The notes under the pieces: generated by a model
What the model was told of the DNA's origin: nothing
The model's input: only the letters and a program-made list of their open reading frames with translations
Database searches by the model: none
Assembly (NCBI GenBank): GCA_951406725.2
Contig: OX597818.1
Coordinates: 142,414,001 to 142,478,000, forward strand
DNA from: Octopus vulgaris
Taxonomy: Eukaryota
DNA length: 64,000 nt
Reading direction: 5' to 3'
Shown: one piece after another, positions 24,129 through 61,245 of the stretch
How positions within the stretch are numbered: position 1 is the first letter of the stretch
How the letters are laid out: the number at the start of each line of letters is the position of its first letter
Made by a program: the position numbers and the translations under genes

Positions 24129-26521
24129 TGCGTGTGTGTGTATGTGTGTGTGTGTGTGTGTATAAAGTGCAGGCATAGATGTGTGGTTAAGATATTTGCT
24201 TCCCAAGCATATACTTTTAGGTTCAATCTCACTGCATGCCACCTTAGGCGAATGTTGTCAGTTTTACCGGCAGGAACTTGATAGATGGAAACTGCATGGA
24301 AGCCTTTCATATTCATAAATATATGTGTGTGTGTGTGTGCGTGTGTTATGTCTACTAGCAGAAACTAGTAAACTGAGTTTTTTTTTTATATCAAAGTTTG
24401 ATTATTCTTTTCTCTTGCTTTATTCATCATTTTTACATTCATTTTTCCCATTTACTTTATGGTATTAGAATCTGTTATGAGCTTGACATTGTTTTACAAA
24501 CTGGATAGATGCCCTTCCTATCACCAACACCACCACTCACTTTACAACATGAATTGAGTACATTTTGTCATACCACCAGTACTAGAGAAGTGGTTTATCA
24601 AGATTAAGTGTCCCTGCTGAGTTTGATTTATCTCTAATATCTCTGGCACAGATGAGATGAAGTCAGACAACATCACTGGCTCCTTAGAAACAGAATCTTT
24701 TCTAGTATTATACAATAAGCAATTTGTGTTTGTCCATTGATGACCAATGAAGGTAATTGTTATGGCTATGTGGTTGAGTTCTGTGCATTTGATGGCTGAT
24801 GAGTTAAATTCTAACATTAAAATAACAGCTATATTGAGGTCAAATATGACCTGTGACTTTATTTGAGATAGTACCTGATTGAGTTTTAAGGAGTTCACAA
24901 TTGGTTTCTGCTGTTTGAATGTCTGTCCCACACAAGTATTTTGCACTTAGAATAAACAATGCTAAACAATCAACACTACAATACAATTAACAAATGACAG
25001 ACAATTAACAATCAACAATTCTGAATTAACAGAATTGTCCAAAAAAATGAAAACAACAAAAACAAAATGAGAAAAATACAAAAGTAAAAATGTATAACAA
25101 AATTATTTAATAGATAATTTGAAGTTTCTAAAGATAAAGGATAAATATTCAGAATGAATTTGGTTATTTGTATTGTAACATCTTTATTTAGAAAATATTT
25201 ATGACTCAACCAAAGTAACATTCTTTTGCTAAGAAGTTTCCCTGATTTCAATTCCTTCTACTTTTCTTATTTCATTTTATTTTTTTTTTTTTTTACATTT
25301 TGTTTTTCAAGTTATTCAAGTATTTGATGTAATCTGGAAACATAAGGCGGGTAACATTCTTTTTCAGAATGTTAGGTGTTATGTCAGAAGCCAAGGAGAA
25401 AAATGAAAATGAAATTAAAAAAAAAAAAAGATGGAAATAGAAAGAGAATCAAGTTGTACAATTGCAACATACTTTTACACATTTTAATTCACATTCATAA
25501 ATCCATGGAAACGTAATAATGCACAGACATTACATATTCATATTTGTACATTTATGTAGAAATATAAAATTACACATAAGTACACTACAAAGAATTTTAT
25601 ATTGGATGAAGGTCAACTCAAACAATTGTTTATCTAAGATCAATTGAATACCAGTAATATATTTGCATAAATATTGACACTGAGGTGGTAGAGCAATGAC
25701 ATTCTCTGCTTAGAAGTAGTAGAAAAATACTTATAAGCAAATATCATTAAGTGAAGATTTTTTTTTTTAATGAATACCGTATTATATTTATGTGTTAGAA
25801 AAAAGAAGAGTAACCATCTATGTCTTTAATTTGTTCCAGTTAATGGAATTTTATTTGTTCTAATCAATGCAGGGACATTGTTTTGAAGAGTTTAACAATC
25901 AACAATTCTGAATTTACAGAATTATCCTAAAAAATTTGAAATCCTAGATGAGTTCATGTTACAGCAGGCGTTACAAATAAGAGCACCCTTATTCAACAAA
26001 TTAAGCCCAGTACATATTTAAAAACTTGATACATACTCTATCATTCACTTTTGCCAAACCACTGAGTTACAGGGACATAAACAAACTTGCACCAGTCCTC
26101 AAGTGAGGGGACAAACACAAACAAATATACATACATGCACACACACACATCATATATATATATATTTATTTAGAAAATATTTATGACTCAACCAAAGTAA
26201 CATTCTTTTGCTAAGAAACTTCACTGATTTAAATTCCTTCTACTTTTCTTATTTTAATTTTTGGGATCACCACTACTTTATTATCTCCCCTTCTTCCTAG
26301 CTCTCCTGTATGACCCTTCCAGAATTCACCATGATAGATTGCTAGCCACTACACATTCTATATTTTCTCTCCTTGTTTCTTTCAGTGTTCGTTTCTGTGG
26401 AAGAGCGTAGGCTGGAAACGTTAAAGACTTTTTCACTTCTTGAGCATTAAACTAATACATCTGTTTGTTGTCTACACCACCTGTCTTCGTCTTTTTTTTT
26501 TTTTGTGAATTTTCCCTATAT

Positions 26522-26554
<33 letters not shown>

Positions 26555-26991
26555 CGTGTGTGTGTGTGTGTTCGCGTGTGCGTGTGTGTGTGTGTATGTA
26601 TGTTTCTCATGGGCTCCTTTCAGTTTCTACCTACCAAATTCATTCAGAAAGCTTTAGGTAGCCTGGGTCGATAATAGAAACCACTTGCCCAAGGTAAAAT
26701 AATAAGCACTGCAGTGTGCTTATAAGAATTGCTCTTTGACCACTTGTTTCAGGTTCAGTCTTCAGTCCTGTTATGTGCTAATTTAGATAGAGTCAGGTCA
26801 ACCAGTGCCTTATGAAGGAATTTGGTAAATAAAAACAGTGGGACACCTGTTTTATATGTATAATATATATATATATATATATAAATATATATATGGTTGT
26901 GCGGGTGCGCATGTGTAGGTATGGACATGTGTGTTTACGCGAATACTATGAACATTTTTACTCCCTTACCTTTACTAGCATTTTTCCAATG

Positions 26992-27059
26992 GCCAGATAA
27001 CTGAAGAGATGGCAGCATGGGTTTCCACCCCAATGTCCGAAACTGAGATTTATCATGGC
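26992..27059 (+). ncRNA. Degenerate type I hammerhead candidate
   Basis: GCCA-GATAA-CTGAAGA...CC-GAAA-CTGAG-AT-TTATC-A-TGGC. Helix I is intact; helices II and III are decayed. Confidence 0.5.
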
Positions 27060-27343
27060 TACCGAATAATTGTCACATATATTATACTTACAGATAAATT
27101 CCTCTATTTACATAATATCGAGGTCTCTTTCATTCTTTTCTTGTCTTACCATTTCTATCAACCGTTAATGCTTCTGTATTTCATGTTTCTGTATTCCATT
27201 ATTGTTTTTTGTTTTTTTATATTCGTCCCTTTTGCTGTCCTGGTGTTCGTATGCATTCGATCCTTCTTCCAGGAAATCTACGCTCCCAGCTTAGTTTTTC
27301 TAATGCTCGTTGCTTAGTTTTTCTTGGAGGGCTGGCCGTGATC

Positions 27344-27411
27344 TAGTAATCTCAAGATTAATCAGCCGAAATTACTACGATGATCCGGTTCTTGACTGAA
27401 GACTGAGGGTT
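27344..27411 (+). ncRNA. Non-circularly permuted hammerhead candidate
   Basis: TAGTAAT-C-TCAAGA / AGCC-GAA-ATTACTA / TCTTGA-CTGAAGA-ctgag-GGTT. Helix III is 7 bp, helix I is 6 bp, and the cleavage triplet is AUC. Confidence 0.6.
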
Positions 27412-27489
27412 TCGAATGTCCTGTCCGTGTTTATTGTATCGTCTTCTAAGAGTTATACGTTCTTGTCCATGTTGTATTTTTCTACATAC

Positions 27490-27528
<39 letters not shown>

Positions 27529-27531
<3 letters not shown>

Positions 27532-27915
27532 CACTGGATTAACCATTAAGCAAATGTTTACAACATCAAAGAAAGTACGTCACCACACACATGGTAAACT
27601 TGCTAAAATAATATTCAAAGTGGTTTATATGATTGGAAATATAATTTATAATTTATATAAGTTCATGGTACCATAGTGAGAATCTGACCAAAGGCTTTAC
27701 AATTAAAAGAAGTAGGAAAAAACTTTTCAAATATAAATAAAGTGGAAGTATACAAAAGTAAACATTATTTCCACCTTACTGTTAGTTTACCTTTATTTTG
27801 AAAAACAAAAATTTATTTTATGGTTTATTATTGGTTATATTTTGCATTACACAAATAAGGAGGCACCAAATTATTTTATGTGCTTAGGGTTTCTAAGGGT
27901 CATAATCCAACCCTG
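27529..27915. mobile_element. Possible hAT-type MITE
   Basis: Imperfect TIRs CAGCACTGGATTA and TAATCCAACCCTG. Confidence 0.4.
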
Positions 27916-32761: not shown

Positions 32762-32832
32762 GGTCCCTAATTCTTCATCAGTTATCAACCAGATGGTATT
32801 ATTCAGTTTCGCACCATTAATGATAACACTGA
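32762..32832 (-). ncRNA. Second non-circularly permuted hammerhead candidate (probably inactivated, N17=G)
   Basis: TCAGT-G-TTATCA / GGTGC-GAA-ACTGA / TGATAA-CTGATGA-agaattag-GGACC. Confidence 0.6.
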
Positions 32833-33439
32833 GAACTTCCTATGCTGGCAGTGTCTATGAAAGTTGTGGAGAATATAGGGCCAAGAGCAAACAAAAAGTG
32901 GACATACGAAAGTGGATAAGTGTAATTTAAGACGATGGACAAAGATGAAATAAATAAGCCTCAGGACATAAAAGACAAGAATGGTGGGTAATGCTTAGAA
33001 GGCATCCTAAAGGATTAGAAAACAGCAAATAGCAAGACAGTGAGACACAGAGAATGTATGATCAGTCAGCTATGCAACTGGTGTGAAAAAGGGAGAGAAA
33101 GAAAGAAAAGCTGGTCACAGGTCACGTGTCAGCAGCAGGTAGAGGAGAGAGAGGAAGAGACAAACCGATTGAGAAAGAAAAAAGGGAAGGGATGAAAGGG
33201 AAGAAAGGAGAAAGGCTAGAAATAGAAGTAAGAGGGTGAGAGAGAGAAAAGGAGAAAGAGTGAAGGCAAGAAATGGAGTCTGCAAGGATATATAAAAAAC
33301 TTACTGTTATATATACATATATTTGTAAAAACCATTCTAGCATGGAAAAATCATGTAAAATGAGCGAATGAACAAATAGTAATAAACAAAGTAAATTCTT
33401 GCACTGCTATCAGAATGTAGATTAACTTTAACCCTTTAA

Positions 33440-36081: not shown

Positions 36082-36766
36082 TGCATATATAGACACATAT
36101 ACATAACAATACATGCATACACATGTGTATGTATATCTATATACACATATGCATGTATACATACTCTGAGGAGAAAAAGTGAGGGAGAGAGGATGAATTA
36201 TGTAGGATAGTTTTTTTAGAAAAAAAAGAAAGCACTTCAACGTAATTCCTGACAATAAAATACCAGCTATTTTCTGTGTTACCCCAATAAATTTCAATTA
36301 CGTCATTAAAAAAAACCACACATCCGTCAGTGGTGCTCCCTCCCTCTGTAAACTTTAAATAACTCAACAGGATGTACATACTCAAAAAACATCATTAACC
36401 AAAGCAAACTAACATCATATAGGAAATATAGAGATGAAGTGCCACACTGAAGGATATTGGAGGGGTGAAAGTTGGTAGTAGGAGTGGTATTTGGAATTTT
36501 GGTGAAAGTTCTGGTATTTAGAATTATGATAGAAATAGTGATTGGATCTGCAATGATTAAAAGGAATGTTGTTGTCATCGTCATTCTTTAGTCCCATGTC
36601 AGCTCTGATCAAATAGTTCAATGATCAAAGACCTTCAAGATATGGCAATCTATGAGTCTTTTCAAACATTATTTATTCATAATATATTGTCCAATAGGTC
36701 TCTTACTTTTAAGACAGTATTTTGAGCAGCAACATAGAGGTATCTTCATTTGCTCGTTAAAGTGAC

Positions 36767-37361
36767 TTTCAAAGTGTAATGAGAAAAGTGGTGTTTGGAA
36801 GTGTAATAACAGAGGTGGTATTTGAAAGTGTAATTACAGAAGTAGTGTTTGGAAGTGAAATGGAAGAAGTGGTATTTCAAAGTGTAATCATAGAAGTGGT
36901 GTTTGGCAGTGTAATGGTAGAAGCAGCATTTGTAAGTGTAATGACAGAAGCAGTGTTTGGAAGTGTTATAGTGGAAGCAGTGTTTGGAAGTGTAACGGAA
37001 GAAGCATATTTTGAAAGTGTAATGGTAGAAATGGTGTTTGGAAGTGTAATGGTAGAAGTAATATTTGGAAGTGTAATGGTAAGAGTAGTGTCTGGAAGTG
37101 TAATGGAAGAAGTGCTGCTTGGAAGTGTAAGTGTAGAAGCAGTGTTTTGAAGTGTAATGGTAGAAGTTGTCTTGAAGTGTAGTATCAAAATGGTGCTTGG
37201 AAGAAGTATAATGAGAGAAGCAGCATTTGGAGTTGTAATGGTAGAAGTAGTGCTTGGAAGTGTAATGGTAGAAGCAGTATTTAGAACTGTAAAAGAAGAA
37301 GCAGTGTTTGGAAATGTAATTAAAGAAGCACTGTTTGGAAGTGTAATCGTAGAAGTGGTGT
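36767..37361. repeat. Diverged monomeric 27-bp satellite
   Basis: Consensus TTGGAAGTGTAATGGTAGAAGTGGTGT. Confidence 0.9.
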
Positions 37362-39737
37362 TTGAAAGTGTAATGACAAAAGAGGTGTTTGGAAGAAGTG
37401 TAATGAGAGAAGCAACATTTGGAAGTGTAATGACAGAAGTGATGTTTGGAAACGTAATGGTAGAAACAGTGTTTGGAAGTGTAATTGTAGAGTGGTGTTC
37501 GGAACTGTAATTGCAGAGTGGTGTTTGAAAGTGTAATGACAAAAGAGGTGTTTGGAAGAAGTGTAATGAGAGAAGCAACATTTGGAAGTGTAATGACAGA
37601 AGTGATGTTTGGAAACGTAATGGTAGAAACAGTGTTTGGAAGTGTAATTGTAGAGTGGTGTTCGGAACTGTAATTGAAGAGTGGTGTTTGAAAGTGTAAT
37701 GACAAAAGAGGTGTTTGGAAGAAGTGTAATGAGAGAAGCAACATTTGGAAGTGTAATGACAGAAGTGATGTTTGGAAACGTAATGGTAGAAACAGTGTTT
37801 GGAAGTGTAATTGTAGAGTGGTGTTCGGAACTGTAATTGAAGAGTGGTGTTTGAAAGTGTAATGACAAAAGAGGTGTTTGGAAGAAGTGTAATGAGAGAA
37901 GCAACATTTGGAAGTGTAATGACAGAAGTGATGTTTGGAAACGTAATGGTAGAAACAGTGTTTGGAAGTGTAATTGTAGAGTGGTGTTCGGAACTGTAAT
38001 TGAAGAGTGGTGTTTGAAAGTGTAATGACAAAAGAGGTGTTTGGAAGAAGTGTAATGAGAGAAGCAACATTTGGAAGTGTAATGGCAGAAGTGATGTTTG
38101 GAAACGTAATGGTAGAAACAGTGTTTGGAAGTGTAATTGTAGAGTGGTGTTCGGAACTGTAATTGAAGAGTGGTGTTTGAAAGTGTAATGACAAAAGAGG
38201 TGTTTGGAAGAAGTGTAATGAGAGAAGCAACATTTGGAAGTGTAATGACAGAAGTGATGTTTGGAAACGTAATGGTAGAAACAGTGTTTGGAAGTGTAAT
38301 TGTAGAGTGGTGTTCGGAACTGTAATTGAAGAGTGGTGTTTGAAAGTGTAATGACAAAAGAGGTGTTTGGAAGAAGTGTAATGAGAGAAGCAACATTTGG
38401 AAGTGTAATGGCAGAAGTGATGTTTGGAAACGTAATGGTAGAAACAGTGTTTGGAAGTGTAATTGTAGAGTGGTGTTCGGAACTGTAATTGAAGAGTGGT
38501 GTTTGAAAGTGTAATGACAAAAGAGGTGTTTGGAAGAAGTGTAATGAGAGAAGCAACATTTGGAAGTGTAATGACAGAAGTGATGTTTGGAAACATAATG
38601 GTAGAAACAGTGTTTGGAAGTGTAATTGTAGAGTGGTGTTCGGAACTGTAATTGCAGAGTGGTGTTTGAAAGTGTAATGACAAAAGAGGTGTTTGGAAGA
38701 AGTGTAATGAGAGAAGCAACATTTGGAAGTGTAATGACAGAAGTGATGTTTGGAAACGTAATGGTAGAAACAGTGTTTGGAAGTGTAATTGTAGAGTGGT
38801 GTTCGGAACTGTAATTGAAGAGTGGTGTTTGAAAGTGTAATGACAAAAGAGGTGTTTGGAAGAAGTGTAATGAGAGAAGCAACATTTGGAAGTGTAATGG
38901 CAGAAGTGATGTTTGGAAACGTAATGGTAGAAACAGTGTTTGGAAGTGTAATTGTAGAGTGGTGTTCGGAACTGTAATTGAAGAGTGGTGTTTGAAAGTG
39001 TAATGACAAAAGAGGTGTTTGGAAGAAGTGTAATGAGAGAAGCAACATTTGGAAGTGTAATGACAGAAGTGATGTTTGGAAACGTAATGGTAGAAACAGT
39101 GTTTGGAAGTGTAATTGTAGAGTGGTGTTCGGAACTGTAATTGAAGAGTGGTGTTTGAAAGTGTAATGACAAAAGAGGTGTTTGGAAGAAGTGTAATGAG
39201 AGAAGCAACATTTGGAAGTGTAATGACAGAAGTGATGTTTGGAAGTGTAATGGTAGAAACAGTGTTTGGAAGTGTAATTGTAGAGTGGTGTTCGGAACTG
39301 TAATTGAAGAGTGGTGTTTGAAAGTGTAATGACAAAAGAGGTGTTTGGAAGAAGTGTAATGAGAGAAGCAACATTTGGAAGCGTAATGACAGAAGTGATG
39401 TTTGGAAGTGTAATGGTAGAAACAGTGTTTGGAAGTGTAATTGTAGAGTGGTGTTCGGAACTGTAATTGAAGAGTGGTGTTTGAAAGTGTAATGACAAAA
39501 GAGGTGTTTGGAAGAAGCGTAATGAGAGAAGCAACATTTGGAAGTGTAATGACAGAAGTGATGTTTGGAAACGTAATGGTAGAAACAGTGTTTGGAAGTG
39601 TAATTGTAGAGTGGTGTTCGGAACTGTAATTGAAGAGTGGTGTTTGAAAGTGTAATGACAAAAGAGGTGTTTGGAAGAAGTGTAATTGTAGAAGCAGCAT
39701 TTGGAAGAGCAATGACAGAAGTGGTGTTTAGAAGTAT
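37362..39737. repeat. 163-bp higher-order repeat of six monomers (27+30+27+27+26+26), 14 full units plus a partial unit
   Basis: The marker TTCGGAACTG recurs every 163 bp from 37498 to 39617. Confidence 0.95.
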
Positions 39738-40129
39738 GGTGATGAATATGACATATTCAATTCTTTTATCCCAAAACATGAGCCTGTCTAAAAAATACGA
39801 ATACATATGATTATCTAATAATGAATATATTATAACTGCGCAGGGGCCAGATCATCCTGACTGAAATAGTTATAGTCGTAGATCTTTTCAATAAGAGCTG
39901 AAATAGAGGTAACCAATAACAACAGCAACTCCATGTCCTCTCTCTACCTCAATCTCAAATGATGGGTAATATTCCAAGATTTCAAAACCATTTTCCTTAT
40001 ATTAACTCAACTTAGGAACTTTGTTATGGACTAAAATAAAAGCAAGGTGGATACAATTCATCATTTGAACCATTTGCTGTCCACATGTAAAATATTTCAC
40101 ATTGCTAATAGGAAGTTTTTGTATGGGAA

Positions 40130-52470: not shown

Positions 52471-52842
52471 TATAAAATATTATTAGAGACAAAACCACTA
52501 TTTTGCAAAACAAACAAGGAAAGACTTAATCAATACATAAAATTTTAATAAATAGTCAAAAAAACCGCCACTACAATTGTTTCTTGTCTTGATCGACAAT
52601 CTTCAGGTGGACTTATTGGAAGTCCACCTGAAGATTGTCGATCAAGACAAGAAACAATTGTAGTGGCGGTTTTTTTGACTATTTATTAAAATTTTATGTA
52701 TTGATTAAGTCTTTCCTTGTTTGTTTTGCAAAATAGTGGTTTTGTCTCTAATAATATTTTATAATATTTTACTATAAAATTGGATTTAATCCTAAATCTG
52801 ATTTTTTTCCCTGTAAATTTGGATTTATTCCCTAATATTTAT

Positions 52843-59932: not shown

Positions 59933-61245
59933 GGAGCAGGTCAGCTGGAGAGAAGGCCAGCTGGAGAGCAGGCTAACTGGAGTGCAGGTCAGCTGGAGAG
60001 AAGGCCAGCTGGAGAGCAGGCCAGCCGGAGAGAGGGCCAGCCAGAGAGAGGGCCAGCTGAAGCTGGAGAGCAGGCCAAATGGAGAGCAGGCTAACGGGAG
60101 AGACGGCCAGCTGGAGAGCAAGCCAAATCGAGAGCAGGCCAGCTGGAGAGCAAGCCAGATAGAGAGCAAGCCAAATGGAGAGCAGGCCAAATGGGGAGCC
60201 AGCCAAATGGAGAGCAGGCCAGCTGGAGAGCAAGCCAGCTAGAGAGCAAGCTAGCTGGAGAGCAGTGCAACTGGAGAGCAAGCCAGCTGGAGAGAAGGCC
60301 ATCTGTAGAGAAGGCCAGCTTGGAGACCAGACTAACTGGAGAGCAAGCCAAATGGAGAGCAGGCCAACGGGAGAGCAGCCCAGCTAGTGAACAAGCCAAA
60401 GGGAGAGCAGACCAGCTGTAGAGCAAGCGAATGGAGAGCAAGCGAATGGAGAGCAAGCGAATGGAGAGCAACCCAAATGGAGAGCAGGCCAGCTGGAGAG
60501 CAGGCCAAATGGAGAGCAGGCCGAATGGAGAGTAGACCAACGGGAGAGCAGTCCAGCTGGTGAATAAGCCAAATGGAGAGCAGAGCAGCTGGAGAGCAAG
60601 CGAAATTGCGAGCAGGCCAAAATGAGACAGGCCAACTGGAGAGCAGGTCAGCTGGTGATCAAGCGAAATGGAGAGCAAGCCAAATGGAGAGCAGGCCAAG
60701 TGGTGAGCAGGCCAACTGGAGAGCAGACCAGCTGGAGAGCAAGCCAAATGGAGAGTAAGCCAGCTGGAGAGCATGCCAGTTCGAGAGCAGGTCAGTTGGA
60801 GAGCAGGCCAGTTGGAGAGCAGGCCAACTGGAGAGCATGCCAGTTGGAGAGCAGGCCAACTGGCGAACAGGCTAGTTAGAGAGCAGGCCAACTGGAGAGC
60901 AGGCCAGTTGGAGAGCAGTCCAGTTGGAGAGCAGGCCAGCTGGAGAGCAGGCCAGCTGGAGAGCAGGCCAGTTGGAGAGCAGGACCAACTGGAGAGCAAG
61001 CCAGCTTGAGACCAGGCCTGCTGGAGATCAGGCCAACTGGAGAGCGAGAGCAGGCCAACTGGAGAGCAGGCCAACTGGAGAGCAGGCCAGCTGGAGAGCA
61101 GGTCAGCTGGAGAGCAGGCCAACTGGAGAGCAGACCAACTGGAGAGCAGACCAACAGGAGAGCAAGCCAGCTGGAGAGCAGGCCAGCTGGAGAGCAGGCC
61201 AGCTGGAGAGCAGGCCAGCTGGAGAGCAGGCCAGCTGGAGAGCAG
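59933..61245. repeat. 16-bp minisatellite (CTGGAGAGCAGGCCAG, about 80 units) inside a family-C SINE
   Basis: The SINE-C tail lies on the left (59872-59932) and the SINE-C body resumes on the right (CTGGATGCCCTTCCTAATGCCAACCAC). Confidence 0.92.

Follow-up and report, generated by a model that had tools for sequence, protein, structure and literature searches.

The genome of Octopus vulgaris was analysed over a 64,000-nucleotide (nt) stretch (assembly GCA_951406725.2, contig OX597818.1, positions 142,414,001 to 142,478,000 of the forward strand; hereafter the window). It contained a 5'-truncated copy of a non-coding, Penelope-like and retrozyme-like repeat, whose unit of about 855 nt was arranged head to tail elsewhere in the genome, and this copy harbored a candidate hammerhead ribozyme with AUC triplet, GAA-A and CUGAAGA, in the order cut site, GAAA, CUGANGA. 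Hammerhead numbering places cleavage 3' of position 17, which was C27351 in the window. An initial annotation, made from the sequence alone, had placed the motif at 27344–27411; all its letters and coordinates matched the sequence, as did its helix III (27344–27350 with 27371–27377, 7 base pairs [bp]) and helix I (27352–27357 with 27390–27395, 6 bp), both of which covaried between subfamilies, but that extent was too small, the whole fold spanning 27254–27418. The features of the fold and of its carrier copy were as follows:

27161 to about 27492, + strand: 5'-truncated copy of the repeat unit, delimited by blastn against 30 genomic copies, its 5' end joined to an older element of another family
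27254–27266, + strand: 5' strand of the outer closing helix, pairing with 27405–27418 (duplex prediction extended by eye) and conserved in 12 sister copies
27268–27328, + strand: predicted hairpin (−21.1 kcal/mol) ending beside G10.1, its helices pairing in 88% and 97% of cells; an internal duplication makes it about 20 nt longer than its sister-subfamily counterparts
27330–27335, + strand: helix II strand with G10.1 (G27330), separate from A9; G10.1–C11.1 in 11/11 copies, 4/6 pairs compensatory
27336–27343, + strand: 5' strand of the bridging helix, which connects helices I and II at their tops (type SGC's "I" helix), with one bulged base in the window subfamily
27344–27350, + strand: helix III strand, last base U16.1, its first two bases standing where sister subfamilies have a kink-turn-like GA
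27351, + strand: C17 of the AUC triplet, predicted cleavage 3' of this base; the 5' junction step of a sister subfamily falls at the next base
27352–27357, + strand: helix I strand N1.1–N1.6, followed by a 4-nt linker (27358–27361)
27362–27367, + strand: helix II strand, last base C11.1, partner of 27330–27335
27368–27377, + strand: G12-A13-A14 and the helix III strand from A15.1 (invariant alignment columns)
27382–27388, + strand: 3' strand of the bridging helix, preceded by a 4-nt bulge (27378–27381)
27390–27402, + strand: helix I strand N2.6–N2.1 and core C3–A9 (CUGAAGA), N7 being the sole variable core position
27405–27418, + strand: 3' strand of the outer closing helix, starting two bases after A9
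27493–27528, + strand: (TA)n tract closing the insertion on its 3' side

The conserved partner of 27362–27367 was 27330–27335, upstream of the start given by the initial annotation. The partner was sought, using the five bases before G12, in 86 unique cores for which helices I and III were the sole selection criterion: a Watson–Crick partner upstream of the cut site was perfect in 51/86 cores and reached at least 4/5 in 76/86, while none of the 86 had four or more Watson–Crick helix II pairs directly after A9. A downstream window equal in size to the upstream one (16 bases) gave a perfect match in 1/86 and 4/5 in 41/86, and the cross-family control gave perfect matches in 4/56. At least seven distinct helix II strand pairs were recognized (GGCTG/CAGCC, GAAGG/CCTTC, GAACG/CGTTC, GAGCA/TGCTC, GACAC/GTGTC, GGCCC/GGGCC, and GCCCA/TGGGC), every one with G10.1–C11.1, and G10.1 lay 21 bases upstream of the cut base in six groups and about 25–27 in another clade. 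The helix II strand being upstream, the chain is therefore open between A9 and G10.1 (hereafter split core). The extra nucleotides between core and helix II, conceded by the initial annotation as its weak point, need no explanation because the G10.1 strand comes from upstream and not directly after A9. One of its two helix II registers, TCAG/CTGA, was paired in 45.5% of 44 cells, a value equalled by 247/500 shuffles. The stretch 27335–27420, suggested there for a cleavage assay, is without most of this helix II strand and without the outer helices, and could give a false-negative result. Two further ideas were rejected: (i) a splice acceptor at G10.1, given that AG preceded G10.1 in only some families and no joint was seen in assembled contigs; and (ii) 27413–27418 as a remnant of an old GAAA block, given that these bases pair in the outer helix.

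The core C3-U4-G5-A6-N7-G8-A9 plus G12-A13-A14 was invariant, with N7 free, in 18 diverse copies, an invariance that is partly circular in that most loci were fetched with core patterns; the NUH triplet with A15.1–U16.1 was AUC in the window, and the U–A pair was found in 11/11 copies. Inner-helix covariation was scored in 11 copies from the window's clade; an additional row that carried an insertion was excluded. The four inner helices were paired in 89.8% of 275 cells with 15/25 pairs compensatory, a result reached by 0/500 shuffles (not a probability, because the alignment rows are related), and slid-partner controls gave 15–43% paired. Compensatory pairs numbered 4/6 in helix I, 4/6 in helix II with its upstream strand, and 4/5 in helix III; the bridging helix was 81.8% paired with 3/8 pairs compensatory, and its duplex energy among seven representatives was −7.7 kcal/mol for own strands vs −4.3 kcal/mol across families. 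Families unrelated in sequence kept identical wiring. The homologs thus bore out the core, order and helices I and III of the initial annotation, which were kept and covaried, but helix II paired with 27330–27335 instead.

The outer helix and hairpin were paired in 90% of 301 cells across 12 sister copies, with 6/26 pairs compensatory and 1/500 shuffles as high; the outer helix began 0–2 bases after A9, and the hairpin ended next to G10.1. When the outer helix was tested with a 16-base upstream window, no support was obtained (own −3.6, cross −4.9 kcal/mol), because its strand sits 22–62 bases upstream. The kink-turn consensus consists of a 3-base bulge followed by tandem G-A and A-G; scored against this consensus, a kink-turn-like sequence motif was present in 36/38 GGCTG/CAGCC cores and in the Naiad-type family, and in another clade it was present in 1/10, or in 4/10 in the opposite orientation.

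The Rfam scan gave no hammerhead at gathering score in the window, nor at E up to 10 in 26800–27600, as the initial annotation had expected of standard hammerhead models. Types I–III hammerheads are circular permutations of the order C, G, S (CUGANGA, GAAA, cut site), and this circularly permuted order was not found in the motif, which had S, G, C. It was the order of type SGC of the Weinberg laboratory, so that both the suggested relation to that laboratory's permutations and the reading as a hammerhead core in non-circularly permuted order held. According to Eckert et al. (2023; PMC10085705), type SGC cleaves, single motifs being cut during transcription, and the count of six permutations assumes that CUGANGA and its helix II strand are inseparable. 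The window motif and type SGC shared the block order S, G, C, a short linker between helices I and II (four bases here), a helix that connects helices I and II at their distal ends, and the core bases, and together with type CSG they are openings of one cyclic strand order. They differed in that CUGANGA of type SGC continues straight into the helix II strand, while this strand was upstream here, and in that the outer helix, the hairpin and often the kink-turn-like motif were present here. The intact block C (helix II strand 1–2 bases after A9), which the published search pattern requires, was absent. The RNA lies outside the six permutations because its G10.1 strand is separated from CUGANGA; judged from its sequence, it would work like a hammerhead, yet it does not belong to type SGC in its published definition.

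The minimal type I hammerheads that PMC4209133, PMC7229834, and bioRxiv 10.64898/2026.07.22.740005 describe from Penelope-like elements and non-long-terminal-repeat (non-LTR) retrozymes were likewise found as one ribozyme per tandem non-coding unit with conserved G10.1–C11.1, but they had the canonical order and a weak helix III, while the octopus motif had a permuted order, a strong helix III and six helices; the carrier thus resembled a non-LTR retrozyme in its non-coding tandem units with one ribozyme each, and not in the type I hammerhead. In Penelope-like hammerheads of metazoans an extra base is retained between positions 9 and 10.1 (PMC4209133), and A9/G10.1 is therefore a tolerant place for a break. 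The available portion of the Eckert supplement held no mention of Octopus, Mollusca, Metazoa, cephalopod or retrozyme. Neither the split-core form nor permuted hammerheads in Naiads were found in the openly accessible literature at the level of titles and abstract beginnings, and split-core wiring was not described in the passages of Forgia 2023 (PMC10162972) and PMC13725137 examined for hammerheads "with additional helices".

The carrier unit ended at (TA)n and was often 5'-truncated or 5'-inverted, in agreement with the retroelement link proposed at the outset; tandem loci included L005 and L019, with a unit length of 857 in the latter. A search of the 2.8-Gb genome yielded 1,335 candidates, and all 40 that were scored were identical over 141 bases; a 73-base core had 687 exact copies, many of them in arrays of 2–4 at a spacing of about 840–860. 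A looser pattern for the window's clade gave 18,972 matches vs 1,494 in the reversed control (roughly 17,000 related cores), and a pattern for other clades gave 14,743 overlapping matches vs 3,309. The window core was also found in sequencing runs filed under four organism labels. No partner bearing an open reading frame (ORF) and ending in the window subfamily's sequence was found among the genomic loci examined, and none of the 30 top GIY-YIG loci had a split-core motif. An active family with reverse transcriptase and GIY-YIG, located near two copies, was rejected as the mobiliser: it had an ordinary type I core and no split-core motif. A very young autonomous Penelope-like family (L136–L155; reverse transcriptase plus C-terminal GIY-YIG, 6,506 candidates, open frames of more than 1,000 codons) had, in its 3' region, an 11-base word in common with the window's unit.

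To collect 5' junctions of genomic copies, a pattern located 3' of the cut in a sister subfamily was searched (3,246 matches); its first 90 matches were mapped, and 86 remained after four with internal deletions were dropped. Relative to the predicted cut, 27 junctions fell at 0 to +20, four at −40 to −1 (p 1.7e-7), and four at +21 to +37; the best change point was N1.1, and the junction rate was 4.7-fold above that of the −90 to −41 stretch of similar A+T (60% vs 67%; p 1.2e-5). Junctions near −165 were unused, the reference sequences diverging there. In another clade, truncated copies started mostly at 0 to +12 (by eye, 11 loci), while a canonical neighbouring family taken as positive control for the junction step was dominated by 5' inversions. 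Such a pile-up is what copying of cut RNA would leave, and stalling or microhomology with (TA)n could also produce it.

The comparison was extended to Naiads, for which Craig et al. (2021; PMC8557442) reported no canonical hammerhead and flagged unexplained "HHR_core" and "HHR_half_core" cases; the same study described (TA)n targets and 5'-truncated, tandem and inverted insertions for Penelope-like elements. File S5 of that study was searched for four core heptamers (places examined 60/62, 30/43, 15/23, and 15/25; line breaks may hide matches), with record names taken from record order. Within the part of the file covered, split-core wiring was recognized by eye at the end of at least 10/54 Naiad consensi from about five phyla: (i) Naiad_Bfor (ctenophore), with a helix I of only 2 bp; and (ii) one record in the Clytia part, three Acropora records, Naiad-2_Movir, Naiad_Plae, one record in the crustacean part, Naiad_Obim, and Naiad_Ovul. 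Ctenophore, cnidarian and acanthocephalan records also showed the outer helix and hairpin, built from different sequences. At least six records in the nematode part had an unbroken core ordered C, S, G, i.e., type CSG, with a long bridging helix. The window's repeat was like Naiads in its (TA)n targets and its tandem and 5'-inverted insertions, which are common to other Penelope-like clades and not diagnostic, and a genome family (L184, L323) matched the 3' end of the Octopus Naiad consensi that carry split-core wiring; unlike Naiads, the window unit was non-coding, without the ORF of N-terminal GIY-YIG and C-terminal reverse transcriptase. Two further loci of the GGCCC/GGGCC family, L307:1525–2031 (− strand) and L314:2193–2564 (− strand), had ORF ends directly upstream of a split-core motif; these ends had no Pfam match, and by their motif they appeared to resemble the ends of HERO-type non-LTR endonucleases. 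The split-core, type-SGC and type-CSG forms each correspond to a single cyclic strand order opened at a different point, and this suggests that it was re-opened by way of the tandem repeats which the elements make.

The favoured explanation, given a probability of about 0.7, is that the window carries a hammerhead core in the order cut site, GAAA, CUGANGA, open at A9/G10.1 and embedded in a tandem non-coding Penelope-like repeat, which likely adopts a single-molecule fold and self-cleaves 3' of C27351. Helices II and III would stack, and helix I would lie beside helix II through the 4-base linker; the bridging helix would link helices I and II at their tops and turn back towards helix III via the kink-turn or bulge, and the outer helix and hairpin would close the gap and keep A9 beside G10.1. 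Repeated cleavage of a transcript of several units would then free units of about 855 nt, possibly ligated to circles, and a Penelope-like reverse transcriptase would copy the released units in trans into (TA)n tracts. Several observations weigh against this explanation. The alignment rows are related, which inflates the tests; much of the outer helix is invariant, and its free duplex test was weak (own −8.6 vs shuffled −7.7 ± 2.4 kcal/mol, 25 copies); the nested fold of 27335–27420 had a stability like that of shuffles (z 0.73), a measure that is uninformative for a knotted RNA because crossing helices are beyond what the program models. In the window subfamily, TA replaces the kink-turn GA and the bridging helix is bulged, and so this copy may fold or cut less well, young and abundant as the subfamily is. 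The junction change point is shallow, −12 lying within one log unit, and the junction peak is at +9 to +13, a position that stalling or microhomology with (TA)n might explain. According to PMC10085705, no more than one or two bases separate CUGANGA from the stems in known hammerheads; and in an anole element, protein was required for cleavage, on which in vitro insertion did not depend (PMC11167929).

Among the alternatives, a domain-swapped pair of tandem units, in which case only multimers would be cut, is unlikely but ranks highest: one unit would supply both helix III strands together with the cut site and GAAA, and its neighbour the G10.1 strand and CUGANGA. Many copies do stand in arrays of 2–4 units, the 0–1 base linkers of the bridging helix would, by their geometry, make one-molecule closure tight, dimeric action is reported for the Penelope-like hammerheads of metazoans (PMC4209133), and Eckert et al. 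note the same closure puzzle for type SGC (PMC10085705); yet single type-SGC motifs were cleaved during transcription in that same source, and the kink-turn-like motif and the outer closing helix both suit a one-molecule fold. Slightly less probable still is a conserved hammerhead-shaped fold without efficient cutting, serving as a recognition or stop signal for reverse transcriptase, with the pile-up arising from stalling or microhomology. The hammerhead metal site adjoins A9/G10.1, where this chain is broken, which agrees with such a signal, as do the peak of junctions at +9 to +13 and not at 0 and the unaffected in vitro insertion of the anole element with hammerhead mutants (PMC11167929); it fits poorly, however, with the retention of the catalytic bases, of a non-G at position 17 and of A15.1–U16.1, with N7 free, across unrelated families and phyla, and with the scarcity of junctions upstream of the cut, A+T-rich sequence included.

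The fold drawn by the initial annotation, in which an ordinary type SGC would have A9 followed by five extra bases and helix II (AGCC/GGTT) formed with 27408–27411, is very improbable. Its 4-mer was fully paired (4/4) in 68/101 unique copies, a sample dominated by one subfamily, and the 41/86 cores with 4/5 downstream pairs would agree with it; however, the 12 commonest forms printed showed no compensatory change, a sister subfamily had the pairing disrupted and other clades lacked it, perfect 5-base matches were 1/86 downstream vs 51/86 upstream, and 27408–27411 belongs to the outer helix. As for a chance assembly of short motifs in a repeat, the short helices and the unremarkable nested fold are what it would predict, but block shuffles of the window (n=60) gave 0 matches with helices I and III of at least 5 bp (0.03 per shuffle at at least 4 bp), and these shuffles, the excess of genomic matches over the reversed control (18,972 vs 1,494), the upstream helix II partners of the 86 cores and the covariation refute it.

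Other elements were present around the motif and elsewhere in the window. The older Penelope-like 3' end at 26976–27160 (+ strand) had a canonical type I hammerhead with its core at 27001, and this copy has lost 2 bases from helix III and its loop; a 25-base marker of this older element had 2,240 exact copies, with GIY-YIG-like coding remnants beside some. A decayed 3' end at about 26385–26430 (+ strand) resembled the active family with reverse transcriptase and GIY-YIG and had a minimal type I core. At about 32775–32860 (− strand) lay a second core ordered cut site, GAAA, CUGANGA, belonging to another family like L263, and it was probably inactive because the cut position appears to be G. A perfect 144-base inverted repeat with a 5-base spacer, CUGAAGA near its centre and (TA)n flanks occupied 52471–52763 and looked like a 5'-inverted Penelope-like end. 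Two tandem arrays were also found: (i) 163-base units, 98–100% alike and built from 27-base subunits, at 36686–39850, with minus-strand stop-free frames of 843–993 codons and strong GC skew; and (ii) about 81 copies of a 16-base unit at 59934–61245, with a minus-strand stop-free frame of 402 codons.

The wider claim, held with somewhat less assurance than the explanation of the window motif but still judged probable, is that the split-core form is a seventh natural hammerhead topology and an active ribozyme, that it is the missing Naiad ribozyme across animal phyla and common to unrelated retroelements, and that it arose by re-opening of the cyclic order, as the nematode type CSG may illustrate. 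If true, it breaks the assumption that CUGANGA and its helix II strand are inseparable, and the count of six permutations would be incomplete. Animal genomes would then contain tens of thousands of non-circularly permuted hammerheads, a kind earlier reported from environmental sequences only, and the nematode Naiads would put type CSG in the genomes of named animals. The junction step would constitute genomic evidence on whether retrotransposed Penelope-like RNA is cut by a ribozyme, and a testable answer is offered to the apparent lack of a ribozyme in Naiads, the "half core" cases included.
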